Source: a virus. From it: a stretch of DNA of 64,000 bases. Within the stretch, counting starts at the first letter, position 1. The number at the start of each line of letters is the position of its first letter. Below, piece after piece: positions 24,321 to 41,280 of the stretch. The DNA is taken from positions 35,806 to 99,805 of IMG/VR virus record IMGVR_UViG_3300009068_000001, one strand, 5' to 3'. Under the pieces are notes generated by a model. The model searched no databases and was not told the DNA's origin. It saw only the letters and a list, made by a program, of their open reading frames with translations. Made by a program: the position numbers and the translations under genes.

Positions 24321-24548
24321 TTAAGCTCCTACAATTGGAGGAGTAAAAGACTTAGTTGTTTTGTTGTATGTCCAACCCGGGTAGATATCACTATTAGTGT
24401 CATTCTTGATATCTGTAATATCTACAATAGTAGGTTCACTTAAAAGAATTGCGGCTAGACGATCATGAGTATGTAAAATATCCACTACCTGCCCATCAAT
24501 AATAAAAGCAATTTTATTAAATGGAATTTCGGATGCGTTTCCGGTCAT
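24321..24548 (-). CDS. small protein, fibre-assembly-chaperone-like
   Basis: IAFIIDGQVV..PGWTYN..FTPP. Confidence 0.55.
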   Translation of the reverse strand: MTGNASEIPFNKIAFIIDGQVVDILHTHDRLAAILLSEPTIVDITDIKNDTNSDIYPGWTYNKTTKSFTPPIVGA

Positions 24549-24790
24549 TCTGTCTCCTTAAATGATACTTGCATTACGCCCCACTTACCAAGTGGACACG
24601 AGGCATTAGGAAGCTTTGTCTTTAGATTCATCATACATCCGCACTCTTTGCACTGGTTAGTTAATTTAATTAACTGAGGGCATTCAAGGCAAATATTAAA
24701 TCTTTGTTCTGCTATCTCTGTTTCTACTCGACCTAGGTTCTTATTGAATAAGTCCCACGGGCGTGCAGGTCTTTCAAATGGATCAGCCAT
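24545..24790 (-). CDS. small Cys-cluster protein
   Basis: R..IC.ECP..QCKECGC.M..K..ASCPLGKW. Confidence 0.75.
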   Translation of the reverse strand: MADPFERPARPWDLFNKNLGRVETEIAEQRFNICLECPQLIKLTNQCKECGCMMNLKTKLPNASCPLGKWGVMQVSFKETE

Positions 24791-24799
24791 ATTGTAGTC

Positions 24800-26167
24800 C
24801 TAACCAGATATTTTAAAATTGTCTACTGTAGATCCCTGGCCAAATGGGCTAGAGGTCTTAATAATACCATAATTGTTTGCTTTTGCAGGCGAGGTTGCAG
24901 TATGTGTACCAGAGGTTAATAGTCCCGTAAAGTCAGAATTTGAGTAGGCCTGATAACTTAGTACATTTCCTTGAGTATTTAAACGAAGAGCCCCAACTGA
25001 GCCACTTACGCTTATATCTCCAGTAAGGTTTGTGATAGTTCCACCCACTGAACGAATTAGTTTTATATAATAGTTATTGGTAATTGACCCGCAAGTTTGG
25101 CAACCACCGCCGTATTGATCACAATTAGGGTAAGTTCCACCACCGTAGCAAGTAGACCCGGTATAGTAATATGCAACTCCGCAGTCAGGATTTGCACAAC
25201 TATAGCAAGTAGTTGTTCCGGCTGTTGTAACTGTACAAACACCTGTTGATTGGTTAGCTGTACCGCCGCTTGGGCAACTATAGTAACCAGTACCAAACGA
25301 TGTAACGTAGCAACGACCGCCACTTTCAGTACCACTACTACAAGTACAAGTAGTAACTCCACCTGTAGGTATATAGCAGCTGTAGTTACCTGGGTGACCA
25401 CTTTCTCCCTCAGGACATTCGTAACAGTATGATCCAGTGCCACCTGAGTAACAATCAGATGTGCTATAACAATTATAGTTGGTTGGGTCATTAACTTGAG
25501 TTTGACTACATCTACGACCATAAATAACAGCAGAGCCTATATATTTCCAACCACTTACACTTGTTGTACAGTTAGCAGCACCAACATCAGTTACAGTTGT
25601 TCCACCTGGAACATAAGTTCCTTGATAGGTACTAGTACCTCCGCCAGAAGTAGTAGAGCCGCAATAATAACAACTAGTGCAGGTATTATAAACTGGTACT
25701 GGATAAGTATCGCAGTGGCCATTACAGTAACAGTTACATGAATAGGTAGTATTTACTTGGGTTTGAAAAGAAACTAAAGCATACCAGTTATTAGCATCGA
25801 CTACCCAAGCAGCAACACCGGTACCATTACTAACACCGGCTCCTACAGTAACATCGCTAACACCGTAAGCTACGGTAGCAATAGCGTTTGAACTTGCGGC
25901 AGTATCTGATTGAGCAGCAGATCCATTGGCGTACCAAGTACCTGTAACGTTAGTCCAGGTCTCTCCGCTATCTGCTGTACCTAAAACACCTGAAACTGAG
26001 CGGTTAAAAGAGTCTGTAATTGGACCAAGAAACCAACGTACCCAAGTAGTAGCGTCTGTTTTTAACCAAGCGCTCTTAGCAAGGCCCCAAGAATTGGAGC
26101 TTGTTTTTACTTGAACGTCAGTTACGCTACCCCAGTTGCTGGCATCTAATTTTATTTTGGCAGGCAT
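24800..26167 (-). CDS. putative fibre-tip/adhesin: beta-sandwich with a 26-Cys insert
   Basis: Trp-repeat N-terminus; DSFNRS..W..GTW lectin-like start and VDNFK end; central Cys/Tyr/Gly/Thr-rich region. Confidence 0.6.
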   Translation of the reverse strand: MPAKIKLDASNWGSVTDVQVKTSSNSWGLAKSAWLKTDATTWVRWFLGPITDSFNRSVSGVLGTADSGETWTNVTGTWYANGSAAQSDTAASSNAIATVAYGVSDVTVGAGVSNGTGVAAWVVDANNWYALVSFQTQVNTTYSCNCYCNGHCDTYPVPVYNTCTSCYYCGSTTSGGGTSTYQGTYVPGGTTVTDVGAANCTTSVSGWKYIGSAVIYGRRCSQTQVNDPTNYNCYSTSDCYSGGTGSYCYECPEGESGHPGNYSCYIPTGGVTTCTCSSGTESGGRCYVTSFGTGYYSCPSGGTANQSTGVCTVTTAGTTTCYSCANPDCGVAYYYTGSTCYGGGTYPNCDQYGGGCQTCGSITNNYYIKLIRSVGGTITNLTGDISVSGSVGALRLNTQGNVLSYQAYSNSDFTGLLTSGTHTATSPAKANNYGIIKTSSPFGQGSTVDNFKISG

Positions 26168-27099
26168 TATGCGTAGACAATCCAGATATCCCCGACGTTG
26201 CCGTCGCTGCTTATTGGTGCTACAGTTCTTGTATAAACGTTTCGGACAACTCCTGAGCCAAGGGCTGCAGTAGTAACTGTTCCATTACTTTGACCAACAT
26301 AAGATGTTACTGGTGCTACCCAAGTAGCAGTTGTGCCGTTGCTTGTTAAAACGGTTCCATTGGCGCCTATGCCGAGTCTAGATACAGCTCCAGCTCCTGA
26401 CCCAAGGATAAGGTCTCCGGCCGTTGTAACGGTCGCTAGAGGGATTTTAGAGGTATCTGTAGGCACACCCCAGACAACTGAACCAGCACTTACAATAAGT
26501 GATTGACCGTTAGATCCAATACCTAGGCGAGTAACTGTTGCGTTACCAGATCCCAGAATAAGATCTCCCGCAGTTGTAATTGTAGCTAGGGGAATCTTAG
26601 ATGCCGCAGCTGTGGTATTTGAACTAATTGATGTAGTAAGAGTTGTGTAATCAGAACTACCTACATAGAGAACGTTAGATGTAGCAACCTTAGGCAAACC
26701 AGCTGCGTCTAAGTTAAAACCAAGTACGCTTGCGTATGAGTAAGCTTCGATAAGATTAAGACTTGTAGCTCCAGCACGAAGGGTTAAGCCCTTGTTGTTA
26801 GTGGTAGTGATTGTGCTTCCACCAGAAATTAGTGGGTAAGGAGCTCCAGATACACCAGAGATAAGACCAGCCTCAATATTAGCAATACGATCATAAACAG
26901 TTCCCCAAGTAGTTGCTTGAGAGAATGAGCCAGACCATGTAGAGGTAAGAGGGTTTTGCGATGTAGCAGCGCTACCTAGTACCGCCTCAATCTGCTTAAC
27001 TTCCTCTTGGAGGGAGTTAACGTTGTCCGCAATAACAGTGTTGACAAGGTCTTGCTGAGCGGTATAGTTTCTTACGCTATTGGGAAATACTGCTGCCAT
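26167..27099 (-). CDS. fibre protein with two KIPLAT.TTAGDLILGSG..RLGIG.NG repeats
   Basis: Internal repeat; C-terminal AP..GDIWIV motif. Confidence 0.7.
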   Translation of the reverse strand: MAAVFPNSVRNYTAQQDLVNTVIADNVNSLQEEVKQIEAVLGSAATSQNPLTSTWSGSFSQATTWGTVYDRIANIEAGLISGVSGAPYPLISGGSTITTTNNKGLTLRAGATSLNLIEAYSYASVLGFNLDAAGLPKVATSNVLYVGSSDYTTLTTSISSNTTAAASKIPLATITTAGDLILGSGNATVTRLGIGSNGQSLIVSAGSVVWGVPTDTSKIPLATVTTAGDLILGSGAGAVSRLGIGANGTVLTSNGTTATWVAPVTSYVGQSNGTVTTAALGSGVVRNVYTRTVAPISSDGNVGDIWIVYA

Positions 27100-27166
27100 G
27101 TTTAAATCCTAACGTCTATTATGTATTGTAGTTTACCAGCTAAGACAGCTCTTGTCTCTGGGTTTA

Positions 27167-28162
27167 CTAAAGTGCGTATCGAATAACTACTAGTCCTGGT
27201 CCACCAGCTGTGTGATAATTTGGCTTACACACACCTGGAATATAATATTGATTGGTACTTTGAGGTGCGTTTGGAGCCTCAGCATAGTAAGAAACATCAT
27301 TACCTGTAGTAGTTGTACCTGAAGTTACTCCGCCGACATATCCTGCACCACCGCCCCCAGCTGAAGAGTAGTAATCACTTCCACCACCGCCACCATAGAA
27401 ACCAGCTCCACCGCCACCGCCACCATAAGTGCCGTTATTAGACATAGAGCTCCCGTCTCCTCCGCCACCAAAACCACCTAGTTGACGGGTGTTTCCAGAA
27501 GGAGATCCATACCCACCGTATAGTGCGCCTCCAGCTTGGCCATCACCATAGCCACCACCAGTGTCAGGACCAAAAGCACCACCAGCAGATTGAGTTCCTC
27601 CATAGCCACCTACACGTCCAGTACCAATAGGTCCTCCACGATTATCGCTATAACCACGGTTACCTGTAGTACCGCCACCTGCACCACCGTTAGCAGCAGA
27701 GCCGCTACCTCCAGAACCACCACCACCGCCAGCTGCAATAATTAAAGCACGTGCTTGACCTGTGGCATCAAATGTAACTGTAGAGCTTCCTGAGAATACG
27801 CCGCTTAATCCTCCGCCACCCCCAGCATACCCTGCTATGTTAGAGCCTTTAGATCCGCCGCCTCCTACAATAACTGCGTAGTCTTGAGCAGAAGCAATAG
27901 TTAAAGTACCTGTTGAATACCCGCCAGAACCACCGGAAGATTGATCACCACCACCGCCAGCTGCACCCCAGCAAAAAATTTCTACTGTTATTGGCTTTCC
28001 TACAGAAAACGTAGCTTGACCAACAGTAGAGAAAGTATGTATGCGATATCCATTTGCTACAGTAATTGTTCCACCAGTAACGGGTGCGCTAAGATGATCC
28101 CAAGACAAAGATCGTTTTGTTCCTGATGCAGAACTTGATGTTGATAGATTACGAATTCCCAT
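27167..28162 (-). CDS. glycine-rich fibre tip / receptor-binding protein
   Basis: GYRIHTF..WGAAGGGG..poly-Gly..GLVVIRY. Confidence 0.75.
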   Translation of the reverse strand: MGIRNLSTSSSASGTKRSLSWDHLSAPVTGGTITVANGYRIHTFSTVGQATFSVGKPITVEIFCWGAAGGGGDQSSGGSGGYSTGTLTIASAQDYAVIVGGGGSKGSNIAGYAGGGGGLSGVFSGSSTVTFDATGQARALIIAAGGGGGSGGSGSAANGGAGGGTTGNRGYSDNRGGPIGTGRVGGYGGTQSAGGAFGPDTGGGYGDGQAGGALYGGYGSPSGNTRQLGGFGGGGDGSSMSNNGTYGGGGGGAGFYGGGGGSDYYSSAGGGGAGYVGGVTSGTTTTGNDVSYYAEAPNAPQSTNQYYIPGVCKPNYHTAGGPGLVVIRYAL

Positions 28163-29094
28163 TAGAATGTCACCGAACCTGTTCCAGCAGTAAATTTATA
28201 GACCTTGTATCCGGCTCTTGTTGTTGTGTCTAAGGTGTATGTTAGACCGCCACCAATAGATGTAATATTTGGGTACGTATTTGGGTACGCAACAATCACG
28301 ACACCAGAACCACCCGCTGCTCCATACCAAGCGTTAGTTGCTTGAGGGTTTGAGTTATCCCAAGTTCCTCCACCACCACCGCCTCCAGTGTTTGCATCTC
28401 CTGCAGTTGGTGCAGCAGCAGTTCCTGAGTAAGGCTGACCGCCTCCCCAACCTCCGCCACCTAAAGACCGCTTCATTGGTACATAACCCGCATAGGCACC
28501 CCAACCTCCGTTAGAGCCAAGACCTTCGGTTCCTCCGTTACCGCCACCACCATAGTAAACATACACACCTGTTATTGAGTACGCTAGGCCGTCTCCGCCA
28601 ACAGGACCAGGACTATTTGATTCTAATGTTCCTGACTGATAACCTTTTAGCCCGGCTGCTGCAGCACCGCCACCACCGCCACCATCAAGGTGATTATTAT
28701 CTACTCGGTATTGAACCCCGCCAGCGTAACCATTTCCAGAAGCAGCCCCATTAGAAAAACTACCACTGGAACCATTACCGCCTACAGCAGTTACTGTAGC
28801 AAAAACAGAAGAGGCGCCCTGTTGTCCATTACCACTATTGCCTGGAACTCCAGCAGCCCCACCTGCACCAACCGTTACAGTAAATGCTCCTGAAGGTTTT
28901 GCAAAGGCGGCGTTATAAGTTACTTGGCCTGCGCCACCGCCACCACCACAATTATACCCTCCGCCTCCGCCTCCACCAACTACTAACAACTCAAAAGTTG
29001 CAGGGGCAGAGACTTGGGCTGATTGATCAAAGATAGTTTGCGATTTTGTAAGACCTCGAACTACAGATGAGGTAGACGCACGAGAAATAGCCAT
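28162..29094 (-). CDS. glycine-rich fibre tip / receptor-binding protein
   Basis: ELLVVGGGGGGG..ANTGGGGGG..GSGVVIVAYP..YKVYKFTAGTG. Confidence 0.75.
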   Translation of the reverse strand: MAISRASTSSVVRGLTKSQTIFDQSAQVSAPATFELLVVGGGGGGGYNCGGGGGAGQVTYNAAFAKPSGAFTVTVGAGGAAGVPGNSGNGQQGASSVFATVTAVGGNGSSGSFSNGAASGNGYAGGVQYRVDNNHLDGGGGGGAAAAGLKGYQSGTLESNSPGPVGGDGLAYSITGVYVYYGGGGNGGTEGLGSNGGWGAYAGYVPMKRSLGGGGWGGGQPYSGTAAAPTAGDANTGGGGGGGTWDNSNPQATNAWYGAAGGSGVVIVAYPNTYPNITSIGGGLTYTLDTTTRAGYKVYKFTAGTGSVTF

Positions 29095-29112: not shown

Positions 29113-29448
29113 TTAGGATATTTCGGAACCGAAAGCCTGGAATGTAAGTGATGTAGCTGCTGATGCGTAGACCTGAATTGAGTTCAAGGTAGCAAGAGTA
29201 ATGCCTAGTGTAAGGGCTACAGTGTCATTCGCAGCAATCGTTGTGTCGTATGCAATGTAGTGCTCAGAAGCTAGAGTAGTTCCTGTTGCTGGCTTAATAG
29301 CAATGCGGAATGTCTTAGCTGAGCTTGTGATGTTGCAAACTGTGATAGTAGATACTACTGCGCTAGTAGACGATGGAACTGCGTACAGTTCTTCCATCGT
29401 AGTAGCGGCAGAGTGTTTTCTACCAAGTACCTTATAAGCTGTTGCCAT
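29113..29448 (-). CDS. fibre adaptor (A3)
   Basis: YKVLG..LYAVP..VVSTITVCN..IAYD..FGSEIS; similar to 34248 and 37383. Confidence 0.65.
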   Translation of the reverse strand: MATAYKVLGRKHSAATTMEELYAVPSSTSAVVSTITVCNITSSAKTFRIAIKPATGTTLASEHYIAYDTTIAANDTVALTLGITLATLNSIQVYASAATSLTFQAFGSEIS

Positions 29449-29451: not shown

Positions 29452-30918
29452 TTATGCTCCCATCAGCATGAAGATTTGAGGATTTGGATCTGTAGTAATT
29501 GCGGCCCATGAAGCTGCAGTACCATTGGTTGTTAAGTAGTTTCCGCTCTGACCTGTCTGTGTAGGCAAAGCATCAACAGTAGCCCAAGATACAGCACTTC
29601 CATTAGTAGTAAGATACTTACCACTATTAGAAGTCTGAGTTGGAATAATTCCGCTGATTTGAGTTTGAATAGCGCTTGTGACGCCAGACAAGTACCCGAT
29701 TTCAGTATTGGTTACTGAACCAATTGTAGCACTACCCACAACAATGCCTGCATATGTAAGTCCGGCTTCGCCAAAGTTTACAGTTGAGGTTGGCTTTGTT
29801 GTAGCATCTTTAAAGAATTTAACTAGTCCATCGGATGCGTCACGAAGAACTCCAGCAAATTTACGCTTAGTTGTAACTTCTGCAGTTCCCGCTGGAGATA
29901 CCGCAGCCGAGGTTACGTTAGCGTTGGTCTTATCAAAAGTAAATGTAGTTGTAGTAGGCACAGCCTTGACTACATAAGTTCCGTTAAATGTAGCATCAAC
30001 GCTTCCAACAACCACAATATCGCCAACAGCAAAACCATGAGTTGTAGAGGTTGTTAGGGTAGCCACATTAGATGTAAGAGCTTTGTTAGAAACAGCCTTA
30101 GTAATAGTAGACACAGACGTTGCATACTCTGCAACAAGACCTAGGTCTACAGCATCTGTACGGTTATCGCTACCTACAAAGATTAGAGGATCTGCTACAG
30201 ATAACGTTGTTGTCTGTAGAGACGAGCTTGCCCCACCAAATGTTAAGCTACCTGCAATATTAATATTGCCAGTAATACCCACACCACCAACAACTGTCAA
30301 AGCACCTGTTGTAGGGCTAGTAGAAGGTGTTGCAATATTAATTGCTACGCTTTGGTCAGGAGTAATAACCATTTGACTATTGTTAGAAGCTAGTCCACCA
30401 GCAGCAAAAATAAGTTTATTTTGTGAGCCAGTATCACCAGTAGCTAGCACTAGGTTACCTTGGTCAGTTCCGCCAGCTGCACCAACCATAAATATGTAGC
30501 CGTCACCTTTGCCAGTAATTGTGAAGTCTGGGTCTAGGAAGGCTGAAGAGGTGATACCCATATCAATGTAGCCATCTGAATCGGTTCCATTGTTTGAGTA
30601 GGCAATAAAGTCTGTAGAAGCTGTAGCTGCTGCGCTAGAGTTCTTGAAAGCAATCTGAGCATAGTCAGTAGCTGTAGTCTGGAAAACAGCTACAGGGTTT
30701 GTAAGTGCGGCGGCTGTAGAAAATGTAGAAGCTGCACTACCTACATAAAGAATTCCACTAAAGTTGCCATCAACAAAGGTGCCTCCGCTAGCTTCAGCAG
30801 CGGCAAGTGCCTCAATAGCTTTTGAAACGTAGACAAGGTCTTTAGCGGTAAATAAGGTAGCAGCTAGCGATGAGGCTATCTCCGACTTAACTAAGCCAAT
30901 TTCTGTGGTTAATGCCAT
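29452..30918 (-). CDS. fibre protein F3
   Basis: Paralogue of 32310 and 35485 (GYIDMGITSS, GNLVLATG, STSPTTGAL, RDASDG). Confidence 0.8.
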   Translation of the reverse strand: MALTTEIGLVKSEIASSLAATLFTAKDLVYVSKAIEALAAAEASGGTFVDGNFSGILYVGSAASTFSTAAALTNPVAVFQTTATDYAQIAFKNSSAAATASTDFIAYSNNGTDSDGYIDMGITSSAFLDPDFTITGKGDGYIFMVGAAGGTDQGNLVLATGDTGSQNKLIFAAGGLASNNSQMVITPDQSVAINIATPSTSPTTGALTVVGGVGITGNINIAGSLTFGGASSSLQTTTLSVADPLIFVGSDNRTDAVDLGLVAEYATSVSTITKAVSNKALTSNVATLTTSTTHGFAVGDIVVVGSVDATFNGTYVVKAVPTTTTFTFDKTNANVTSAAVSPAGTAEVTTKRKFAGVLRDASDGLVKFFKDATTKPTSTVNFGEAGLTYAGIVVGSATIGSVTNTEIGYLSGVTSAIQTQISGIIPTQTSNSGKYLTTNGSAVSWATVDALPTQTGQSGNYLTTNGTAASWAAITTDPNPQIFMLMGA

Positions 30919-30945: not shown

Positions 30946-31068
30946 CTATACGCCAATATTGAGGGATAGGTCGTCTATATCCCCCTGAATAATTTCAATG
31001 GCTGCATCTACAGCCGCCTTCTCCGCTGGGATGAAGGCTACAAGTCGGTTGCTTAGATATCCTGGCAT
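30946..31068 (-). CDS. 40-aa micro-ORF (not in ORF track)
   Basis: MPGYLSNRLVAFIPAEKAAVDAAIEIIQGDIDDLSLNIGV; TAATG coupling. Confidence 0.6.
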   Translation of the reverse strand: MPGYLSNRLVAFIPAEKAAVDAAIEIIQGDIDDLSLNIGV

Positions 31069-31439
31069 TATGTAGGTATTCCTATCCATTCTTGATTTTC
31101 TTCGTCCCACTCATATGGCAATCCATCATTTGGCTTAGGAACTGGCGGGTGCCAGACACATGTTTCAGTATTTAAAGTCCAAGACTCAAAAGGTTTTGCA
31201 CGGTAAAAAGCATCTAGTGCTGGGTCGTAAATCCCACCTAACGTTGCGTAATTTTTTCTAAAAGGTGTGCCACCTAATATATGAGAACCAGACAAAGTAT
31301 TGTAAGACGTACGCTTACAGGTTAAGCCACGAAACTCTCCGTAGTGCTCTTCCCAATTAATATCACTTTCGTTTTCGTCTTTTCCAACAATAACCTCAAC
31401 GACAACGTTGTTCTCGTCTAAAAATGCATAGTGTGCCAT
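31068..31439 (-). CDS. fibre assembly chaperone-like protein
   Basis: MAHYAFLDENNVVVEVIVG..RTSYN..FRKNYA..WHPPVPKP..YEWDE. Confidence 0.7.
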   Translation of the reverse strand: MAHYAFLDENNVVVEVIVGKDENESDINWEEHYGEFRGLTCKRTSYNTLSGSHILGGTPFRKNYATLGGIYDPALDAFYRAKPFESWTLNTETCVWHPPVPKPNDGLPYEWDEENQEWIGIPT

Positions 31440-32309: not shown

Positions 32310-34223
32310 TTACGCCACCAAGTTACCGATAAGAAGGAATGTATTAGTAGCAGTTACAATAATTTGAGCAGAGGCCCACTGACCGTTAAGCTTGTACTTA
32401 GAGCCGTTAGAATTTAAAGTGCCGCTTGTTGCAATAGTTAGCTGACCAGAACCTGTTTGTACAACAGTCAATACTGTGCCTTGTGTAAATGTTCCTGTAG
32501 GAATAGTAACTGTGCCTGCTGTAGAACCGTTAGAAGCCAGAATAATTTTGTCTTTATCTGAAGCCTGCAAGGTGTAGGCATTAGAGCTAAATGTAGGTGT
32601 CACATATGTCTGCAGTAGTGGGGCATAGGCTGCAACAGCTGTTGTGACGTCAGAAGTTGTGGCTAATGTTCCATTACTTGAAGGCATAGTAATAACAGCT
32701 GATCCAGAAGTGATTGAGCTTGGAACTGTTACTGTACCTGTAAATGTAGGAGAAGCTAACGGAGCTTTAGCGTTTAGTTGAGTCTGGATTGCAGAGGTTA
32801 CTCCGTCTAGGTAACCAAACTCTGTATTAGATACATTGCCTACTGTGAGTGAAGAGGCCGTTAAAGGACCTACTTGAAGATCCCCATAGACAAGCCCTGC
32901 TTCTGAAAAATCTACTGTAGAGACTGGTTTAGTAGTGGCATCTTCAAATACCTTTGTTACACCATCGGATGCATCTCGAACCATTCCGCCAAATCTACGC
33001 TTTGATGATACGACTGCTGAGCCTGAGGCTGATACAGAGCTAACGTTAGTTGCAGTCTTTGCATAAGTAAAGGTAGTTGTTGTTGGTACTGAGGCAACCA
33101 CATATGTCCCATTAAATGTAGCATCTACACCAGAAACAACTACGTAATCTCCTACAGCAAAGCCGTGAGTAGCAGAAGTTGTAAGGGTTGCAACATTTGA
33201 AGTTAAAGCTTTGTTAGATACTGTCTTTGTAATGGTTGCTACGGTAGTGGCATACTCAGTAACAACGCCTAGGTCTACAAGGTCTGCAGTATTAGAATTA
33301 CCAACAAATACAAGTGGGTCAGTAACTGAAAGATTTGCGGCAGATACTGTGGTTCCTGCGCCACCAAAAGTAATTGTTCCTTGAATAGCAACGCTACCCT
33401 GTACGTTCATATCACCTTGAATACCAACTCCACCAACTACCTGGAATGCTCCAGTTGTAGCAGAGGTAGAAGGGGTTGCAATATTAACTTTAACGTTTGC
33501 ATTTGGAGTAATTGTCATCTGGCTTGTACCAGACTCATAACCACCGGCAGCAAATACAATCTTGTTTTGTGTTCCGTTAGCACCAGTAGCAAGGACTAAG
33601 TTACCAGCACCTGATGTACCAGTAGGGGCTGACATAAAAATATATCCATCGTGTGGGCCAGTAATTCCGTAGGTAGCAGAGTTAAATGTTGCTCCTGTGA
33701 TACCCATATCGATCCAGCCAGCACCATCTACGCCATTATTAGCGTAGGCAATGATGTCAGTTGAAGATGAAGATGAAGCGTTGTGTACTGCAAGCTGACC
33801 AAATGAGTCGTTAGCACTTGTAACATTAAATACACCTGTTGGGCTAGTAAGACCAGCTGAAGTATTAAACGCTGAGGCGCCAGTTCCTACATAGATAATA
33901 GTTGGGGATAGCGAGGTAAATGACGGAGAGCTAGTCCAAGCAGCTGTAGAGCCATTGGTAGATAAAACTTTATCTGCGTTACCTGTTTGAGAAGGTAGAG
34001 CGTTAGTTAGCTGAGCAGCTGGGATCTTAACGTTAGCATCTAGGGTGGCAACACCGTTTGCAACTCCTGCTAGGGCAAGGGTGTCTACAGCGTTAGATAC
34101 CTCAACGGCATCTTTTACGGCCTTGGTAAGAAGTAGGTAGTCCTGAGCGCTTAGGGATACGTTTGCAGTATTAAGCTTGTTTTGCAACGCCGTATTGAAC
34201 GTTGTCATAGTAAATGTTGCCAT
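32310..34223 (-). CDS. fibre protein F2
   Basis: Paralogous core; C-terminal YTLQASDKDK..TFLLIGNL domain. Confidence 0.8.
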   Translation of the reverse strand: MATFTMTTFNTALQNKLNTANVSLSAQDYLLLTKAVKDAVEVSNAVDTLALAGVANGVATLDANVKIPAAQLTNALPSQTGNADKVLSTNGSTAAWTSSPSFTSLSPTIIYVGTGASAFNTSAGLTSPTGVFNVTSANDSFGQLAVHNASSSSSTDIIAYANNGVDGAGWIDMGITGATFNSATYGITGPHDGYIFMSAPTGTSGAGNLVLATGANGTQNKIVFAAGGYESGTSQMTITPNANVKVNIATPSTSATTGAFQVVGGVGIQGDMNVQGSVAIQGTITFGGAGTTVSAANLSVTDPLVFVGNSNTADLVDLGVVTEYATTVATITKTVSNKALTSNVATLTTSATHGFAVGDYVVVSGVDATFNGTYVVASVPTTTTFTYAKTATNVSSVSASGSAVVSSKRRFGGMVRDASDGVTKVFEDATTKPVSTVDFSEAGLVYGDLQVGPLTASSLTVGNVSNTEFGYLDGVTSAIQTQLNAKAPLASPTFTGTVTVPSSITSGSAVITMPSSNGTLATTSDVTTAVAAYAPLLQTYVTPTFSSNAYTLQASDKDKIILASNGSTAGTVTIPTGTFTQGTVLTVVQTGSGQLTIATSGTLNSNGSKYKLNGQWASAQIIVTATNTFLLIGNLVA

Positions 34224-34247: not shown

Positions 34248-34667
34248 TTATAGACCAACAAGGGCATAAACTAAGGCTTTATCAGCCTGTGTTTGAGCCG
34301 CTGCTGCTGCTGCCAATGCTGTTTCGTATTCAGTTCCCGATACATTTGTATTATCGATACCTGCTAGTGATACTGATATATCCGCAGAAGAGGTACGAAC
34401 ATAAAGTTTATCATCTGGTTGTAAAGGAAACCGGAAGGTTTCCAAAGAGTTATTTCCTGATATTGGGGAGTTATAAGCAATAGTGGCGTGGTTAGCTGGG
34501 GTTGCATCCTGGCCTGTAGGTATTACCCAAACTCTGATTGTTGCTGCATCAGAAGACTTATTTGTGGCAATTACAGATACAAGGGCAACACGAGAACCAG
34601 TGCGGGTATACAGAAGCGTATCTGTATTAGCCCCTGGATTAGATACTGCTAGACGTGAGATAGCCAT
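34248..34667 (-). CDS. fibre adaptor (A2)
   Basis: Paralogue of 37383..37838. Confidence 0.65.
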   Translation of the reverse strand: MAISRLAVSNPGANTDTLLYTRTGSRVALVSVIATNKSSDAATIRVWVIPTGQDATPANHATIAYNSPISGNNSLETFRFPLQPDDKLYVRTSSADISVSLAGIDNTNVSGTEYETALAAAAAAQTQADKALVYALVGL

Positions 34668-34871
34668 TTAATCCTCCGTAAGAGTAAAGCATGTATCGCA
34701 AATAGGTGGGTCTATAAACACACCGTTTACGTATTGGCCACCCATAAAGGCCTTGTACTCAAAGTCCTCAACAAATGTTGTTGTCTTGTCCAGTCCAAGG
34801 GACAAAAAATGTTCCTTTTCATAAACAATAGTTATATAGTTAGACTCATCTAATACCGCAACTCTTACCAT
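34668..34871 (-). CDS. small fibre-assembly-like protein
   Basis: VAVLDESN..GGQYVNGVFIDPP. Confidence 0.55.
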   Translation of the reverse strand: MVRVAVLDESNYITIVYEKEHFLSLGLDKTTTFVEDFEYKAFMGGQYVNGVFIDPPICDTCFTLTED

Positions 34872-35470
34872 GTTACAAAGTACTCCATTGTTCCGCCTTG
34901 GTTTGAATAAACTGGTCCAGAATCGCTTGGATTATAACCATTTAAAAGGTCATTTGGAAAAGTTCCGCAAGGTTCATACCCCGCACCGATTGACCCGGAG
35001 ACTACGCTACTCCAAGAACAGCTACCTTGTGCAGCATTATAGATGCCGTGTGCTCCGCCGCCGCCCAATATTACTTTTATACCTGTTCCACCAAAATTGT
35101 TTGTACTGCTACTTCCAGTATATCCGGGAAGATTTGTGTTAAATACTTGAGATGAATTACTAAACCTTACAATGCCATATATACCATCTGTACGCCTAAC
35201 AAGAATTTTACTAAAAGGAATACTTTTATCAATTAAGTTTAGCGTTGCAGCAGACCTACTTGTGTTGGCAAATACTTTAATCCAAGCTGAACCGTCAAGA
35301 TAGTTTGCCCCAGTGTAATAAGCAGAAACAGGCTCTGTCATACCCGCAGCATAAAATGAATAGGTACCTGCCGCAAGAGATTGAGCTGCCGCATTAGTCG
35401 GAGAAAACGGATTAAACCCAGCTTTTCCAACTGGGGTTAAAATTTTACCTACAGTTTCAATTAAAGGCAT
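34865..35470 (-). CDS. fibre tip / putative receptor-binding domain
   Basis: Follows F1; short beta-rich domain. Confidence 0.55.
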   Translation of the reverse strand: MPLIETVGKILTPVGKAGFNPFSPTNAAAQSLAAGTYSFYAAGMTEPVSAYYTGANYLDGSAWIKVFANTSRSAATLNLIDKSIPFSKILVRRTDGIYGIVRFSNSSQVFNTNLPGYTGSSSTNNFGGTGIKVILGGGGAHGIYNAAQGSCSWSSVVSGSIGAGYEPCGTFPNDLLNGYNPSDSGPVYSNQGGTMEYFVTW

Positions 35471-35484: not shown

Positions 35485-37374
35485 TTATGCAAACTTAACT
35501 TGTGCACCAAGTACTGTAAATGTTGCCGATGCAGTTTTAATGATTGTAAACGTATAGGCGTCAATTGAGTTAATATTTCCTGCCGAAGGTGCTGTTCCAG
35601 TTTGCCACTTAGGAGTAACAGCTGAACCATCTACTTGGAATACTGTTGGCTTATAAGCTGTAGAACCATTAGTTACCAAGAAAGCTACAGTAGCTGATTG
35701 ACCATTAGCAAGAATTGAGTTAAGGGTTGTTGAACCATCTCCACGGAAGTTGAATGTCCAGTCAGCGGTAGCATTGGATGTGTAGTACTTAACTGCTGAG
35801 GTTGAGAGATCAACGTTAACTGTTCCAGTAGCAGCAGTTGCTGATACGGTAACTGTTTCAGTAGCTGTTGTAAGGTTTGGACGGATTAGCTGAGCTGCTG
35901 TAAGTGGGGCATAAGTAGAAGAAGCTGTTGAAGACTTTAAGTATCCCTGACCAATTACGTATGCAGTAGTTGCAATTTGTGTAGTGTTGGTATCTGTAGC
36001 AGCTGTTGGAGCCGTTGGGATTCCTGTAAGAGCTGGACCGGCTAATGGTGCGTAAGTAGTAGATGCTGTTGCAGATGCTAACTTAGTATCAATCTGTGTT
36101 TGAATAGCAGATGTAACACCATCTAGGTATTGAAGCTCTGTGTTAGAGACGTTTCCAATAGTTGCAGAGGATGCAGTAAATGCTCCCACTTGGAAGTCTC
36201 CGTAGATTAATCCTGCTTCTGAGAAGTTAACTGTAGAGGTTGGCTTTGTTGTTGCATCCTCAAATACCTTAATAATTCCGTCGGATGCATCGCGTACAAT
36301 ACCTGAGTATCTACGTTTTGTAGATGCAGCTGCTGATCCAGTTGCCGCTGCTGAGGTTACGTTAGCGTTAGTTTTAGCAAATGTAAAAGTTGTAGTTGTA
36401 GGCACTGACGCAACTAGGTAGGTGCCATTAAATGTGGAATCTACTCCAGACAAAACTACATAGTCTCCTACATTAAACCCGTGAGTGGTAGATGTAGTGA
36501 TAGTGGCTACATTAGAGGTCAACGCTTTGTTAGAAACAACCTTAGTAATTGTTGCAAATGATGTTGAGTATTCACCAATAAAGCCTAGGTCTACCGCATC
36601 TCCTGCGTTAGCGTTACCAACAAATACTAGGGGGTCTGTTACGGCCAAGTTTGCTGTTGAAACAGATGTTCCCGCGCCACCAAATGTGATTGCGCCGTTG
36701 ATATTTACATCGCCAGTAATACCAACTCCGCCAAGTACAGTAAGGGCACCAGTTGTTGGTGATGTAGAAGGCGTAGCAATATTAATGGCTACGTTGACAT
36801 CTGGAGTAATAACCATTTGAGTATTGTTAGAAGAAAGCCCACCAGCAGCAAATATAATCTTATTTTGTGTTCCTGTGCTATCTGTGGCTAATACAAGGTT
36901 ACCGCGGTCTTCATTTCCAGCAGATGCGCCAACCATAAAGATATAGCCATCGCCTTTACCTGTTGCAGTAAAAGCTGCATCAGCAAAGTTTGAAGATGTG
37001 ATACCCATATCAATGTAACCAGAGGCATCATTACCATTATTTGAATAAAGAATTAAATCAGTAGATGCACTAACTCCAGAGTTTTTATTTCTAAAGGCTA
37101 TTTGTGAAAAGTCTGCGTTATCTACTTCTACTACTAAAGTAGGGTAGGTAAGAGAGGCTGTAGATGCAAATGATTCTGCTGTAGCGCCAAGGTAAATGTT
37201 ACTAGTAACGGTAATATTGTCTACACCATCAGGTGCTACGACGTGACTTACCGCCTCAAGTGCCTTAGCTACATAAACTAGGTCTTGAGCGCTGTACTGT
37301 GACGCCGCAAGCCCAGAAGTAATCTCATTCTTGATTGCGGTAACCTGTGTGGACAGGCTTGAGTAATTTGGCAT
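35485..37374 (-). CDS. fibre protein F1
   Basis: Paralogous core; PALTGIPTAPTA..TQIATTAYV; C-terminal PKWQ.GTAP..IDAYTFTI. Confidence 0.8.
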   Translation of the reverse strand: MPNYSSLSTQVTAIKNEITSGLAASQYSAQDLVYVAKALEAVSHVVAPDGVDNITVTSNIYLGATAESFASTASLTYPTLVVEVDNADFSQIAFRNKNSGVSASTDLILYSNNGNDASGYIDMGITSSNFADAAFTATGKGDGYIFMVGASAGNEDRGNLVLATDSTGTQNKIIFAAGGLSSNNTQMVITPDVNVAINIATPSTSPTTGALTVLGGVGITGDVNINGAITFGGAGTSVSTANLAVTDPLVFVGNANAGDAVDLGFIGEYSTSFATITKVVSNKALTSNVATITTSTTHGFNVGDYVVLSGVDSTFNGTYLVASVPTTTTFTFAKTNANVTSAAATGSAAASTKRRYSGIVRDASDGIIKVFEDATTKPTSTVNFSEAGLIYGDFQVGAFTASSATIGNVSNTELQYLDGVTSAIQTQIDTKLASATASTTYAPLAGPALTGIPTAPTAATDTNTTQIATTAYVIGQGYLKSSTASSTYAPLTAAQLIRPNLTTATETVTVSATAATGTVNVDLSTSAVKYYTSNATADWTFNFRGDGSTTLNSILANGQSATVAFLVTNGSTAYKPTVFQVDGSAVTPKWQTGTAPSAGNINSIDAYTFTIIKTASATFTVLGAQVKFA

Positions 37375-37382: not shown

Positions 37383-37838
37383 CTAGTCAAAAATTCCCAA
37401 ACCTAATTCTATCGCAATTAGGCGGTTATTTAGTGCGTTTGTTGTGGTAAGTGTGGCTAAGTTCGCAGTATCGGCTATACCGTGAACACTAGTTGTTTGC
37501 AAAAGATGGGCGTCAATAGAGGCTGATCCATCGTACACACCGTTTAATGAAAACGATACGCTTGAAGAATTAGCCCGTACTCTTACAACATCTCCCAGCT
37601 TTATTGCAAACCGGTGGGACTCTAAAGAGTTATTGGCAGGTACTGGTACATCATACAGTATATATCCGTACTCTGAGGCGGTAGTTGCACCTAGTGGGAC
37701 AACCCATACCCTAGCTGTTGCAGCTGATCCGCTCTTATTTGTAACAATTACTGAAGATAAGTATGATGCGTCGGCTGTATAAACTGTTGTGTCTGTGTTT
37801 AAAGTTGGGGTAGATATACCCATTCTCACTACTGCCAT
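37383..37838 (-). CDS. fibre adaptor (A1; start MAVVRMG)
   Basis: Paralogue of 34248; HGIADTANL fibre motif. Confidence 0.65.
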   Translation of the reverse strand: MAVVRMGISTPTLNTDTTVYTADASYLSSVIVTNKSGSAATARVWVVPLGATTASEYGYILYDVPVPANNSLESHRFAIKLGDVVRVRANSSSVSFSLNGVYDGSASIDAHLLQTTSVHGIADTANLATLTTTNALNNRLIAIELGLGIFD

Positions 37839-37839: not shown

Positions 37840-38169
37840 CTATGCCCCCAAGAACCATGCAGATGAAAGATCTGCTGGGTTAGATAGAGTAGAGTTAACC
37901 CCAACAACGCCAGACCAAGATCCAGAGTTATATACTAGCATAGAATTTGTTGTGGTATCAAACCACAGATCTCCGCTTTGTGCTGTAACTGGGGTGGTAG
38001 AGCTAACATTCATGTACTCATTGGCACGGCTAGTTGTGATCCAAGCCGTTCCTGTATAAACGTATACTGTGGTATCAGTAGTGTTGTAATACAACTCTCC
38101 TGCACGAACCCCGGTAGGGGCTGTAGCTGAGGCTAATAGGTTTAGCGGGACCAGTTGTTTTATCGACAC
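37840..38169 (-). CDS. short fibre protein
   Basis: Two G.L(Y/W)(Y/F)(N/D)TT..VY.G..W repeats; ends WFLGA. Confidence 0.7.
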   Translation of the reverse strand: MSIKQLVPLNLLASATAPTGVRAGELYYNTTDTTVYVYTGTAWITTSRANEYMNVSSTTPVTAQSGDLWFDTTTNSMLVYNSGSWSGVVGVNSTLSNPADLSSAWFLGA

Positions 38170-38183
38170 TGACTTCCCCCTTA

Positions 38184-39650
38184 TTAACCTACTACTAGGA
38201 CACTGTATGCATTATTAGATGGAGCTACAGCAAAGCTGACGGTTACGGTATTGGCAGTTGCGTTTGTTACATCTGCGTATACAGTCTCATATGTTGAAGA
38301 ATCAAAAAGAGTAACATTTACAAAACGAGTGTTTAGGTTGTGTGTGACTGTAAATGTTGTAGCTGAAGCATTTCCAATTAAAGTTGTATACTTGCGAGCT
38401 ACTACGTTTGTGTTAATTGCTACTTGGTTAGTTGTAGCTGCACCTGCATCACCAGCAGCAGTAGTTGTAATACCAAGGCCAGCTGTTACTGTTAAGCCAC
38501 TGCTTGAAGTAGCAAGACCTGAGTTAGTTGCTAGAAGAATGTATGAACCAGAAGCAGATGTTGTCAAACCACCTGTGCTAGTTGGGTTAAGAGCAAGACC
38601 TGCAGAGTCTGTCTTTAAACCTGATGTAGAAGGAAGAAGTACTGCGCCACCACCAGAACCAGTTGTCAAACCACCAGTTGTTGAAGGGGCAAATGTAAAG
38701 TTAGTTCCTGTAAGAAGAACACCATTTGATGCGCTGTATGTTCCAGTACCTGAGAACTGAGTAAATACAAGAGCTGTAGTATCTAGAGTGATTGGTTGAT
38801 TAGTAGTTAATACCCAACCTGTGTCACCATTTACAGTTCCTTGTTCTACAAATGTAAACATTCCGGCAGTAATATCTGCGCTAGAGTTTGCATCCAAAGC
38901 ACGAGTTGGTGCACCAGAAGCGTTAACTGTATAGATACCGTTTTCAGAACCAGTTGCTTGATTCTTAACAAGTACTCGATCACCAGTAGCAAGAGTTACT
39001 CCATCAAGAGTATCTCCATTTTCAAGACCTGTAGCTAAAGTTACTGCTGCAGTAGTTGCTACACGAACTGATGCTTTAACATCTAATCCTTGTGCAACGC
39101 TATCTACATAATACTTAGTTGCTGCATCTTGTGCGTTTGTTGGTTCAGCAAGATTTGTAAGCTTGTAAGAACCCATTGAGTAATCGCCCGCTGAAGTAGC
39201 AAGAGCGTTAAGAGTAATAGAGCCGTGATCCGCATTTGTGTGGCGGTGAACGTGATCAGCACGAGAAACTTTAAGTGATGTACCTTGAGCATTTGCAGTG
39301 CTGAGGTTTGCCATATCTGCGGTAAGTCCGTAAGGAAGGACAGGTACCCAGTCAGCAGAACTTGCAGTTCCTTTAGCAACGTAAAGAACAAGATTTGTTA
39401 AGTCTAGATAAAGACCACCAGAAGAAGTAGGTGTAGTTGATGGTGCACCTGAACCTGTTGATACGCTACCTACAGGAGTCCAGCCACTGCCATTATAAAC
39501 TTTGAGTGTGTTTAGTACGTTATCGTATGCAACCTGACCAGAGACTGGTGAACCAATAGCATTGATCTGTGTGGTCGACAGATTCTGCACTCGGGCGTTT
39601 TGAAGCTCAAGTTGGTTTAGGTTAATTGGTACTAGAAAACTACGTGCCAT
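38184..39650 (-). CDS. fibre protein
   Basis: LTNLAEPT..DAATKYYVD; VKASVRVATT..GDRVLVKNQ..ENGIY. Confidence 0.85.
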   Translation of the reverse strand: MARSFLVPINLNQLELQNARVQNLSTTQINAIGSPVSGQVAYDNVLNTLKVYNGSGWTPVGSVSTGSGAPSTTPTSSGGLYLDLTNLVLYVAKGTASSADWVPVLPYGLTADMANLSTANAQGTSLKVSRADHVHRHTNADHGSITLNALATSAGDYSMGSYKLTNLAEPTNAQDAATKYYVDSVAQGLDVKASVRVATTAAVTLATGLENGDTLDGVTLATGDRVLVKNQATGSENGIYTVNASGAPTRALDANSSADITAGMFTFVEQGTVNGDTGWVLTTNQPITLDTTALVFTQFSGTGTYSASNGVLLTGTNFTFAPSTTGGLTTGSGGGAVLLPSTSGLKTDSAGLALNPTSTGGLTTSASGSYILLATNSGLATSSSGLTVTAGLGITTTAAGDAGAATTNQVAINTNVVARKYTTLIGNASATTFTVTHNLNTRFVNVTLFDSSTYETVYADVTNATANTVTVSFAVAPSNNAYSVLVVG

Positions 39651-39661
39651 TATCTATCTCC

Positions 39662-39961
39662 TTATGAAAGATACGCGTACCCGCTGAAAGCTGATGAGAA
39701 TACAACCACCAATTGATTTGGGTTTGTATACCTTACTTCGCCTTCAACATTGGTACCTGCTGAGTCTACAACAGTTACGTTTGGATTAAAGTTCAAATTG
39801 TGGAGAATTGTCCACGAAGAGCTTGGGGTTTGTTGAGTATGGGCAAAAGCCACTGCCGGAAACTCAATATCCCGGATTACTATGTCAGCAGGTTCTACTA
39901 CCGTAGTAATGTCTGGAATCTCTATTCCGTAGGCTGGTTGAGCCTCCCAAATTGGACTCAT
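39662..39961 (-). CDS. small virion connector protein
   Basis: W.I.HNLNFNPNVTVVDSAG..FSGYAYLS; resembles the C-terminus of 38184. Confidence 0.6.
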   Translation of the reverse strand: MSPIWEAQPAYGIEIPDITTVVEPADIVIRDIEFPAVAFAHTQQTPSSSWTILHNLNFNPNVTVVDSAGTNVEGEVRYTNPNQLVVVFSSAFSGYAYLS

Positions 39962-41280
39962 AGGGTTACCTGCTTTTCTGTAAAGACTTTACCGGTCAAG
40001 TAAGTCTTAACGGTTCCAGTAGATGAGGTCATTTGAATATCATAATAGGCTGTTCTAGGTAAGTTCTTTGTTACTGAACCCGGTAGTGTCACTCTTAAGC
40101 TATCTACAATAGTGTTGTTACTGTAAGAGTACTTTGTAAAGGTAAAGGTTCCCAAAATAACAAGTCCAACTTGAGCATAGTCTTGAGAGCTGTATAGGGT
40201 GATCTGTCCCTTTGGTGTATAGGTGGTAAGGTCAAATGCAAACTGGAAGTCCATCTCAAAGTCATCACCAGCGTACATAGAGATATCTCTACTGACCACT
40301 GCCCCAGGAGGAGTAATGTCTCCATAATCTGGCATATTTAAACGAACACGTTGTGCTATAGACTTATCATCAATCTCTTGAGGACGGTATACAGGTATCA
40401 ACCTATTTGTAAGGCGGCTAATACGACGCAGGGTCATTACTTCAATTCTAAATAGACCAACACCAAGCATAGCGCAAAGTTCTTTGTACTGTTCTTTACG
40501 AATTTGAATCATCTCGTTTACTTGGCGAAAACGTTCTGAACGTGGAATAGAAACTCCATCTGGAGAAATGATATCAATATCAAAAGCACTATCGGTTGCT
40601 AGGGTATAAAGAGCCATAGTAGAAGCTAAAAGGACTAGCGGATATTCCTCAATAGGCGGGAGCAAAGCAACTTGGGTTACACGGCTACCGTTACTGTCCG
40701 TGGTGTGAGAAGCATGCTCAAGAAAAGCAACGTTAATATAATAAGAAATCTCAGAGTCTGTAAAGTAACGGTAGGCCTGACCCATAACAGTGATTGTTGA
40801 GTTGTTGATAGGTACGGCCGCCGTTTGTATAGTTATAACGCCAAGACCTTCTTCAATTGTTACGGCCGAAGAAATGTCTGTTGTAACCGATGGGACTAGG
40901 GCAGTTGCCGTAGCGCCGGTAACGGCAGTACCTGTTGCATTGTTAGTAATTCTAAAAAGTGTGGGGGTAGCAACTGTGATGGTTGCTCCGGTAATATTAA
41001 AGTTAGATGTAGAAAGGCCAGCAATTGTTACTACTTGGCCTACTGAAAATGAGTTAACCGCAGTGTATGTGACAACTCCTGAAGCCGCTGAAGCCGCTGT
41101 AACAGTGGCTGTTAAGGTTGGGGTAGTAGACTTAACGGATAAGGTATATCCCTGAACCGGAGCTTGGGAAAGTTGATAGCGAGTATCCACACCGTCACTG
41201 GTAAAGGTGTCAGTAAAGGATCTGGCGATGTCGCCAATCTCTGCTCTTAATCTATCCGAGAGCTGCTTTATAGAAGCCAC
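39958..41280 (-). CDS. head-tail adaptor/neck protein with inserted beta domain and BppU-like C-terminus
   Basis: RLRAEIGD..YFTDSEI..YPLVLLA..; C-terminal MYAGDDF..YYDIQMT..TYLTGKV. Confidence 0.6.
   Translation of the reverse strand: MASIKQLSDRLRAEIGDIARSFTDTFTSDGVDTRYQLSQAPVQGYTLSVKSTTPTLTATVTAASAASGVVTYTAVNSFSVGQVVTIAGLSTSNFNITGATITVATPTLFRITNNATGTAVTGATATALVPSVTTDISSAVTIEEGLGVITIQTAAVPINNSTITVMGQAYRYFTDSEISYYINVAFLEHASHTTDSNGSRVTQVALLPPIEEYPLVLLASTMALYTLATDSAFDIDIISPDGVSIPRSERFRQVNEMIQIRKEQYKELCAMLGVGLFRIEVMTLRRISRLTNRLIPVYRPQEIDDKSIAQRVRLNMPDYGDITPPGAVVSRDISMYAGDDFEMDFQFAFDLTTYTPKGQITLYSSQDYAQVGLVILGTFTFTKYSYSNNTIVDSLRVTLPGSVTKNLPRTAYYDIQMTSSTGTVKTYLTGKVFTEKQVTL

Follow-up and report, generated by a model that had tools for sequence, protein, structure and literature searches.

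Gene order at the locus

The subject of this study is a block of fiber-like genes at positions 24321-41280 of a 64,000-nucleotide stretch of viral DNA, referred to below as the window, which corresponds to bases 35806-99805 of IMG/VR record IMGVR_UViG_3300009068_000001, a complete phage genome of 99.8 kb that has direct terminal repeats. Its source is an uncultured freshwater phage of ~100 kb. The block (~16 kb) consists of 21 tightly packed open reading frames (ORFs), all on the minus strand, and lies between the gene for a head-to-tail adaptor, g1 (39958-41280), and that for p193 (193 residues; 23737-24318, minus strand), a probable head-completion (stopper) protein of the neck, which closes it. 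The C terminus of g1 carries a domain that, in the predicted structure, has the fold of the fiber-anchoring collar protein p132 of phage T5, and among related lake phages this domain is exchanged together with the fiber gene that follows it.

The order on the minus strand is large terminase (46428-48005, upstream of the block), portal (43841-45556), scaffold, major capsid protein (MCP; 41830-42906), a 120-residue protein (p120), g1, the block, p193, tiny ORFs, an 89-residue protein, p203, tail sheath (20068-21852), tube, a 790-residue protein in the tape-measure position (16056-18428), which has a metallo-endopeptidase (M23-like) domain at residues ~530-710, and the baseplate genes, among them one for a J-like protein (9792-11540) that is followed by p1074 (1074 residues) and then by replication genes. 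The sheath, tube, and baseplate genes identify this as a contractile-tailed phage. Its MCP is 72-73% identical to that of the Streptomyces phages LuckySocke, Alone3, GiJojo, pSt2308, and BRock, and the host is therefore probably a freshwater actinobacterium. The block is flanked by the MCP and p120 genes on one side and by neck, sheath, and tube genes on the other, and the baseplate genes, at 9.8-14 kb, are ~10 kb away from it; ORF order and coordinates thus bear out a first-pass annotation of this DNA, which had placed a fiber block between the head-tail adaptor and the head-closure position, far from the baseplate.

In LuckySocke, gp82 (275 residues) is the orthologue of the g1 core without the C-terminal domain, the match covering residues 104-311 of g1, and gp83 is the orthologue of p193. 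Because gp82 and gp83 are adjacent, the block sits exactly between orthologues of neighboring neck genes. The wider adaptor family splits into core-only proteins of ~230-280 residues, for which the gene context covered is that of LuckySocke and its relatives, and proteins of ~350-365 residues that have both core and domain. The identification of p193 as probably a head-completion protein comes from its synteny with LuckySocke gp83 and from a weak language-model lead to the Phage_H_T_join_2 and T4_neck-protein clusters (scores 0.90 and 0.88); a search of PDB sequences with p193 gave no match. The earlier label of head closure for the gene at 23737 is retained as probable on those two lines.

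The adaptor and its collar domain

The 440-residue g1 protein (minus strand) is composed of an adaptor core (residues 1-53 and 131 to ~310), a β-barrel of ~75 residues inserted into the core (residues 54-130), an arm (residues ~279-326), and a C-terminal immunoglobulin (Ig) domain (residues 325-440), referred to here as the collar domain. An AlphaFold2 (AF2) model of full-length g1 is good for three of these parts but poor for the helical core, and the core model used in the comparisons is an AF2 prediction for the insert-free core of a homologue from the related genome G001 (86-row alignment; relatives gathered, 229 clusters), with a predicted local distance difference test score (pLDDT) of 92.8. 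Both predictions are of monomers. Foldseek and an independent structural search with this core returned phage neck adaptors almost exclusively, with ~30 of them among the best 50 PDB matches, including KHP30 (7wmp_m; Z 10.6 over 110 residues, root mean square deviation (rmsd) 3.6), P-SCSP1u (8i4m_G; Z 10.2), GP4 (8jov_2; Z 9.9), T4 gp13 (9lu4_D; Z 9.6), phage 812 (Z 8.3), and HK97 gp6 (Z 7.0), as well as the neck adaptors of P1, PhiTE, E217, and Mu. It should be noted that the single Z values are moderate and that the argument lies in the consistency of the match list. The model has the N-terminal helix, helical core, and extended C-terminal arm of the P22 gp4/T7 gp11/T4 gp13/HK97 gp6 class, and its gene is preceded by the capsid genes and followed by those for head completion and the tail, as is also the case in LuckySocke. 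The previous naming of the gene at 39958 as the head-tail adaptor is upheld by the fold of the core model. The sequence profile of the adaptor gives weak matches only to PDB sequences (E ≥ 0.013); one is to the N-terminal region of T7 gp17, through a short R-R-V-x-x-T-T-x-R-L-V similarity.

Residues 325-440 of g1 match T5 p132 (7qg9_L; Z 11.6) and its equivalent in DT57C (8hqz_Q; Z 11.7), over 107 residues with an rmsd of 2.5-2.6 and 22-23% identity, and the N-terminal domain of a baseplate chain of Mycobacteriophage Douge (8zdo_a; Z 11.6). Generic Ig V domains score Z ~7. The Ig domains of the solved neck or connector complexes of P74-26, R4C, Sf14, and Bas63, the one in Bas63 belonging to a collar protein, give Z 7.7-8.7, the values for Bas63 (9mt4_H) and Sf14 (9c39_J), 7.7-7.8, being within the generic Ig range. 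Only phrog_1084, a family with no assigned function, covers this region (residues 332-439). On these models, g1 combines a head-to-tail adaptor with a C-terminally fused domain of the p132/BppU_N-like type, and the earlier statement that the neck protein ends in a BppU-like domain is borne out by the fold rather than by Pfam. Because the modeled collar domain is covalently part of the adaptor, its location at the neck follows directly.

By analogy with T5, the collar domain would bind fibers. T5 p132 forms a dodecameric collar with a BppU_N-linked fold, which anchors the long tail fibers through their N-terminal ~50 residues (PMC10038345). The C-terminal domain of g1 resembles the T5 protein (7QG9; DT57C, 8HQZ) in its p132 Ig/BppU_N-like fold and in the 12-fold ring expected from a 12-mer adaptor, and the partner fiber begins with a short peptide that may intercalate in the way supposed for the ~50 N-terminal residues of pb1. 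The two systems differ in that p132 is a free-standing protein around the distal tail tube of a siphophage, whereas here the domain is fused to a myophage adaptor, must therefore sit at the neck, and is followed by many varied fibers.

Alternatively, the Ig domain of g1 could serve passively, as decoration or to stabilize the neck as a collar, with all fibers of the block at the baseplate. Ig-like domains are common as non-anchoring decorations (PMC10038345), and the matches to the solved neck and connector Ig domains are, as noted, moderate. However, the best structural relatives of the domain are fiber anchors or components of baseplate assemblies (T5 p132 and Douge, the latter with Z 11.6), the domain is exchanged with the next fiber gene and not with the adaptor core, and it is absent from LuckySocke, where the block is also absent; a purely passive role appears improbable.

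A hidden Markov model (HMM) of the collar domain found no second copy in the block proteins of the window or in ~110 related loci, and the idea that branch points in the fiber assembly reuse the collar domain was dropped because no block protein contains a further copy. The inserted barrel of g1 (residues 54-130; 40891-41121) resembles, in the model, the FCCH domain of UBA1 and an endosialidase β-barrel (Z 8-10). A β-barrel module of ~55-80 residues, with copies that are 38-53% identical, recurs in the adaptor, the sheath (residues ~119-173), the J-like protein (residues ~360-442), and the long fibers F1-F3 (residues ~276-359 in F1), and adaptor homologues of 357, 440, and 516 residues have zero, one, and two copies, respectively. 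In one unusual fusion, P0176, a distant relative of the adaptor core is embedded at residues 976-1203 of a 1323-residue protein.

Exchange of the collar domain in related phages

The collar domain is present in all ~70 related loci that have enough downstream sequence. The slot between the adaptor stop and the p193 start measures 13.1-20.5 kb in 12 complete or near-complete (≥90%) genomes (G001, G003-G012, and the present one) and 5.9 kb in the fragment L075. For 69 distinct adaptors the next gene could be called, and its start lies between -19 and +3 nucleotides from the adaptor stop; three exceptions with gaps of 55 nucleotides come from ORFs called in the wrong frame within collagen genes. 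This next gene belongs to the g2 class in 25 cases, is collagen-like in ~34, and belongs to a Cys-motif class in 4, with a few others. The collagen-like class consists of Gly-X-Y fibers of 340-740 residues that begin with one of two N-terminal peptides. The adaptor-coupled proteins of 550-720 residues with G-P-T-G repeats (for example L035:2168-4063, L074:11053-13128, L106:11065-13230, and L024:5101-7275) have a short conserved N-terminal peptide and often a hydrophobic C-terminal tail. The first-pass annotation had named synteny in related genomes as a check on its proposal, and in that comparison the collar domain and a coupled fiber gene, of one class or another, recur across the ~70 relatives.

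The identity of collar domains depends on the class of the next gene. At core identities of 0.8-0.9, it is 0.77 when the next genes are of the same class versus 0.46 when they are of different classes, and at core identities of ≥0.9, the corresponding values are 0.91 and 0.47. In a comparison of the G001 group with the L042/L049/L050/L052 group, the cores are 88-91% and the linkers 84-88% identical, but the collar domains only 44-48%, with a clean mosaic junction at about residue 325 of the adaptor, at the domain boundary. Exchange of the collar domain thus goes with the next fiber gene and not with the adaptor core, and a junction inside the adaptor gene is what would be expected if domain and fiber must match. 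It should be recognized, however, that the co-variation reflects essentially one recombination event present in several genomes and that genetic linkage alone could produce it.

The contents of the slot vary widely. In G001, ~8 kb of it codes for enzymes, comprising six paralogues of the 2-oxoglutarate (2OG)-Fe(II) oxygenase family (five above the Pfam cut-off and one below it), a short-chain dehydrogenase (SDR), a glutathione-peroxidase-like (GSHPx-like) protein, and a DUF6065 protein; this enzyme island within a structural operon is found at L017:16482-21068 and L020:11410-14030. The G001 genes of ~220-250 codons had been considered as tandem fiber-tip paralogues, an interpretation that was rejected because Pfam identifies most of them as enzymes, chiefly of the 2OG-Fe(II) oxygenase family. 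In the same genome, the trio of g19, which is Cys-rich, g20 (DUF6171), and g21 is kept directly upstream of p193, whereas the middle of the block is completely different, which may mean that the block has another fixed module at its far end.

Proximal proteins g2, g3, and g4

The genes of the block are described here in their order from g1, all being on the minus strand. The start of g2 (99 residues; 39662-39961) overlaps the stop of g1, and g2 stands directly after g1 in the 25 distinct relatives of its class. Its product begins with a conserved N-terminal peptide, I-W-x-x-x-P-x-Y-G-x-E-I-P-D-I-T-T, followed by a small β domain that resembles the C terminus of g3, and it is proposed to be the first docking partner of the collar. 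A complex prediction for residues 312-440 of g1 with g2, both supplied as alignments, gave a score of 0.01 and a mark of 0.32, which counts neither for nor against binding. The g4 protein (109 residues; 37840-38169) carries two G-D/E-x-W/Y-F/Y-x..V-Y-x-G-x-W motifs and ends in a hydrophobic "plug", ..S-A-W-F-L-G-A. Among the relatives, g2, g3, and g4 travel together.

The third protein, g3 (488 residues; 38184-39650), is a fiber or whisker with a globular core at residues ~146-334 and a g2-like C-terminal domain. Residues 144-333 match phrog_2647, labeled head decoration (E 4e-56), residues 197-334 and 412-488 match a capsid decoration protein (PDB 9nx3_A; E 1e-10), and there is a further match to the tail fiber gp9 (PDB 23sh_r; E 4.5e-7). 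The core module occurs in 338 phage records, in which it is annotated variously as capsid decoration or tail fiber. The possibility therefore arises that g3, and perhaps other products of the block, bind the capsid shell as decoration fibers, and this would agree with the annotation of homologues in PSS2, Phabba, ChisanaKitsune, and E3 as capsid or head decoration and with the position of the block directly after the capsid genes. However, the region shared with these proteins is the globular middle and the C-terminal part, which elsewhere is annotated as tail fiber and matches the solved gp9, whereas the N-terminal ~145 residues of g3, the expected attachment part, have no counterpart in 9nx3_A. 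Attachment to the capsid would also leave the collar domain and its co-variation unexplained, and it is considered very improbable. Searches of PDB sequences with g3, F1, and the node family described below gave no match to solved whisker chains.

Long fibers, nodes, and candidate tips

Three long fibers, F1 (629 residues; 35485-37374), F2 (637 residues; 32310-34223), and F3 (488 residues; 29452-30918), share a common core, with identities of 64% over ~420 residues for F1 and F3, 64% over ~400 residues for F1 and F2, and 56-57% for F2 and F3, and differ in their C-terminal parts. F1 (phrog_5906, E 2.6e-25) has a C-terminal domain of its own at residues ~491-628; F2 has its own N-terminal extension and C-terminal domain, the C terminus resembling that of a 580-residue fiber in G001; and F3 ends in a plug, ..Q-I-F-M-L-M-G-A, its gene being followed by g15. 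A search of PDB sequences with F1 gave no match. The first-pass description of F1-F3 as paralogues with a common core and different C termini agrees with these identities, and the three N-terminal motifs that it quoted for them are present letter for letter. Its arrangement of the block into three cassettes holds only in part, since the cassettes are not parallel. A node gene lies ahead of F1 and of F2 but behind F3, for which reason a strictly parallel arrangement was rejected; five additional genes belong to cassette 3.

The term node is used for small putative β-sandwich proteins, of which the block contains g5 (151 residues; 37383-37838; phrog_11338), g9 (139 residues; 34248-34667; phrog_11338, E 8e-7), which is 45% identical to g5, and g15 (111 residues; 29113-29448), which matches the g5 family more weakly and has homologues in many relatives. 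Small paralogous genes of this kind are thus present in the block. The true start of g5 is the ATG at 37838, giving 151 residues as in the relatives, and not the TTG at 37907. Node g9 has no useful named neighbors in the ESM Atlas, and a search of PDB sequences with the node family gave no match.

An HMM of the g5/g9/g15 family was used to locate nodes, and their neighbors were inspected in all related loci. When read by eye, the protein encoded upstream has a hydrophobic C-terminal tail in ~27 of 30 distinct node cases, the tails being of the types ..A-W-F-L-G-A, ..T-W-W-L-G-F, ..P-F-L-F-G-T-I, ..F-M-L-M-G-A, and ..Y-M-G-V-L-A. Of 28 distinct node genes, 18 are preceded by a plug defined by a regular expression, compared with 9 among 766 other genes (Fisher p 3e-23, odds ratio 151; the p value overstates independence because the genomes are related). 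In the window, this rule gives the successions g4, g5, F1 and F3, g15, g16, and the relatives have the same order of collagen fiber, node, and F-type fiber directly after the collar. The node domain also forms the first ~100 residues of one-piece fibers of 260-563 residues, some of which end in Peptidase_S74 or Peptidase_G2 chaperone domains; this position at the N terminus of complete fibers supports the view that the node is a fiber-base module.

Several of the remaining proteins are candidate tips. The glycine-rich proteins g11 (289 residues; 31439-32308; Gly_rich_2, E 5e-24; phrog_2295, E 6e-52), g16 (310 residues; 28162-29094; Gly_rich_2, E 2e-16), and g17 (331 residues; 27167-28162; a weak ALK_LTK_GRD match with E 6e-4, below the Pfam cut-off) are of this kind, as is the Cys-rich g19 (455 residues; 24800-26167), which is kept next to p193 in G001. 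The protein previously taken as the tip of F1, g7 (201 residues; 34865-35470), is an ORF with no family match. A fiber-like protein, g18 (310 residues; 26167-27099), has an N-terminal 84-residue segment that resembles LuckySocke gp99. The small proteins are g8 (67 residues; 34668-34871), an ORF with no family match; g12 (123 residues; 31068-31439), which belongs to phrog_7759; and g20 (81 residues, DUF6171) and g21 (75 residues) at 24321-24790, both conserved together with g19 in G001. The label of chaperone-like that had been attached to g8 and g12, as partners of F1 and F2, could not be verified, since neither has a Pfam match and phrog_7759 has no assigned function. Likewise, the ~20 genes that had been described as fiber-type are not all so: g8, g12, g20, and g21 are small and non-fiber, and g19 is Cys-rich. 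In Pfam, 16 of 20 block proteins are without a match, the others being g11 and g16 (Gly_rich_2), g17 (weakly, to a related glycine-rich domain), and g20; PHROGs tie g3, g4, g5, g9, and F1 to families labeled head decoration, virion structural protein, or tail fiber. A megablast comparison of the block with cultured phages gave no match.

Lying between g12 and F3, a short ORF at 30946-31110 contains an internal Met with P-G-Y after it, which is also the start of proteins encoded after node genes in relatives (M-P-G-Y/F..), and it may encode a real linker protein of ~40 residues. Terminator-like hairpins are present on the minus strand at 41347-41362, just before g1 and after the capsid and p120 genes, and at 23017-23034, after the tiny ORFs, the latter being strong (a 7-bp stem with 5 G-C pairs and a T run). 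Between them there are weak terminator-like sites only, a pattern scan having found no G+C-rich stem with a T run like the flanking ones inside the block, and the block may therefore be transcribed by read-through as a single unit. Two of the tiny ORFs (58 and 54 codons; 23040-23523), between p193 and the gene for the 89-residue protein, are putative genes whose basic products would be extremely rich in Lys and Cys, with runs such as C-K-S-C-G-C-G-C-S-K-P-G-C-K-G-A-C-K-K; the 58-residue product has a weak EF-hand/dockerin-like match (E 0.003-0.03).

Site of attachment of the fibers

The folds, synteny, paralogy, co-variation, and adjacency statistics described above are what the analysis itself shows. 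Taken as a whole, the block is read here as a hypervariable fiber system anchored at the neck, with a probability of about 0.5. That the proximal fibers are anchored at the neck is likely, whereas a single branched tree carrying all five of the tips proposed in the first-pass annotation has well below even odds.

Several observations weigh against anchoring of the whole block at the neck. A Pfam scan of g1 identified no family at E ≤ 0.01, BppU_N (PF10651) included. The slot between adaptor and stopper is a general insertion hotspot, since in G001 it holds enzyme genes, and position alone thus assigns nothing to the neck. The g3 protein has the globular domain and the small C-terminal β domain of the capsid-decoration proteins represented by phrog_2647 and 9nx3. 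Node g9 is not preceded by a plug, so that the chaining rule leaves F2 unexplained. Residues 1-84 of g18 are 32% identical to the N terminus of gp99 of LuckySocke, whose gene has baseplate J on one side and the gene for a p1074-related minor tail protein on the other, and at least g18 may therefore be a baseplate fiber. A contractile tail usually needs receptor-binding fibers at the baseplate; p1074, for which a search of PDB sequences gave no match, is the only candidate peripheral protein after baseplate J in the window, and some fibers of the block may for this reason serve the baseplate. The genes for the long tail fibers of T4 also lie far from its baseplate genes.

These points can be accommodated by a mixed arrangement, in which the collar bears short whiskers only (g2, g3, and perhaps g4), whereas F1-F3, g18, and the glycine- and Cys-rich proteins are on the baseplate or tail and are merely encoded in a recombination hotspot between neck genes. 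The unrelated enzyme genes in the slot of G001, the resemblance of g18 to gp99, the presence of p1074 alone after baseplate J, and the gene arrangement in T4 would all be compatible with this, as would the location of gp84, a "tailspike" gene of LuckySocke, in broadly the corresponding head-to-tail region. However, the succession of the g4 plug, the g5 node, and F1 ties F1 to the conserved trunk, and the relatives are alike in this; moreover, no F-type N terminus or node domain was found in the baseplate module. The mixed arrangement is regarded as rather unlikely, and anchoring of the block at the neck is the reading that is developed below.

Proposed assembly at the neck

From the fold of the core, twelve copies of g1 would bind the portal, and, as in the T5 p132 dodecamer, their C-terminal Ig domains would form a 12-membered outer collar at the head-tail junction. 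A translationally coupled protein would dock into this collar by its short conserved N-terminal peptide, in the manner of the pb1 N terminus in T5; the docking protein would be g2 in the present phage, followed by g3 and g4, and a collagen-like fiber of 550-720 residues in other lineages. Gene adjacency suggests that further fibers would be concatenated through a plug-ended proximal protein, a node of ~100-150 residues (g5, g15), and then F1 or a glycine-rich tip. The distal domains (the C termini of F1 and F2, the glycine-rich g11, g16, and g17, and the Cys-rich g19) would most likely bind different cell-surface glycans and provide a multivalent, reversible first contact with the host, and the trigger function would stay with the baseplate and p1074.

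Such a scheme, in which collar domain, docking peptides, plugs, and nodes form a plug-and-socket grammar that concatenates and branches receptor-binding modules from the neck, is put forward tentatively. It would imply that branches are swapped by recombination at defined junctions, one of them inside the adaptor gene, which is likewise a possibility of less than even standing, and, just as tentatively, that these abundant lake phages with a contractile tail might devote 13-20% of the genome to a programmable, neck-based host-range organ.

Comparison with known neck and fiber systems

Collars that bear whiskers at the neck have been described in Bas63, Sf14, XM1, T4, and the podophage GP4, and in Bas63 and Sf14 a 12-fold Ig-like collar ring at the adaptor/head-completion interface carries the fibers (PMC12609058). 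The present system may resemble Bas63 and Sf14 (9MT4, 9C39), XM1 gp40, and the Fiber-1/rope assembly of GP4 in having an Ig-like collar ring at the neck, the fold match of Z 7.7-7.8 being, as noted above, within the generic Ig range. In Bas63, Sf14, and GP4, however, a protein of its own forms the collar, and its "rope" extension is threaded by whisker dimers, whereas here the collar is built into the adaptor, homologues of rope and bead were not seen, and the set of fibers is ~ten times larger and hypervariable. The neck passage structure (NPS) proteins of lactococcal phages also carry a BppU-like domain, and those of TP901-1, Tuc2009, and phiLC3 resemble the present system as adsorption fibers at the capsid-tail junction with a BppU_N-like domain and swappable carbohydrate-binding tips (PMC9692632). 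They differ from it in being single proteins of ~700 residues, with the BppU-like domain at their own N terminus, that are encoded after the baseplate genes of siphophages; here the domain is at the C terminus of the adaptor and ~20 genes follow, rather than one gene for a single fiber protein.

The fibritin of T4 (wac) is similar in forming neck fibers of a contractile-tailed phage and in being encoded beside gp13 and gp14, the g1 core resembling gp13 (Z 9.6), but it is a single coiled-coil protein that aids assembly of the long fibers, and no Pfam match to the fibritin coiled coil or foldon was found in 20 block proteins. In the branched tailspikes of CBA120- and G7C-like phages, several receptor-binding proteins are joined in one assembly through small adaptor domains, as is proposed here; those assemblies are attached at the baseplate or the tail tip and are built with T4 gp10-like adaptor domains, to which no homology was found in the fibers of the block, although a small β subdomain of g1 (residues 20-87) matches the N-terminal domain of CBA120 TSP4 (Z 8.8). 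The present system is set apart from the known ones by the fusion of the anchor to the adaptor, the very large, hypervariable fiber set, an apparent concatenation through plugs and nodes, and the swapping of the anchor together with the fibers.

Neck collars and whiskers were long regarded as an oddity of T4, to which cryo-electron microscopy has recently added a few phages. The anchor built into the adaptor, the 13-20 kb of fiber genes, and the exchange of the anchor with the fibers suggest that a whole lineage of ~100-kb freshwater phages appears to use the neck as a major site for receptor-binding fibers. If this is true, the collar domain, docking peptides, plugs, and nodes would constitute a sequence-level rule for reading fiber architecture from metagenomes; the anchoring of fibers at this site would account for the diversity hotspot between adaptor and stopper; and the block would supply candidate modules for the prediction of host range in uncultured phages.

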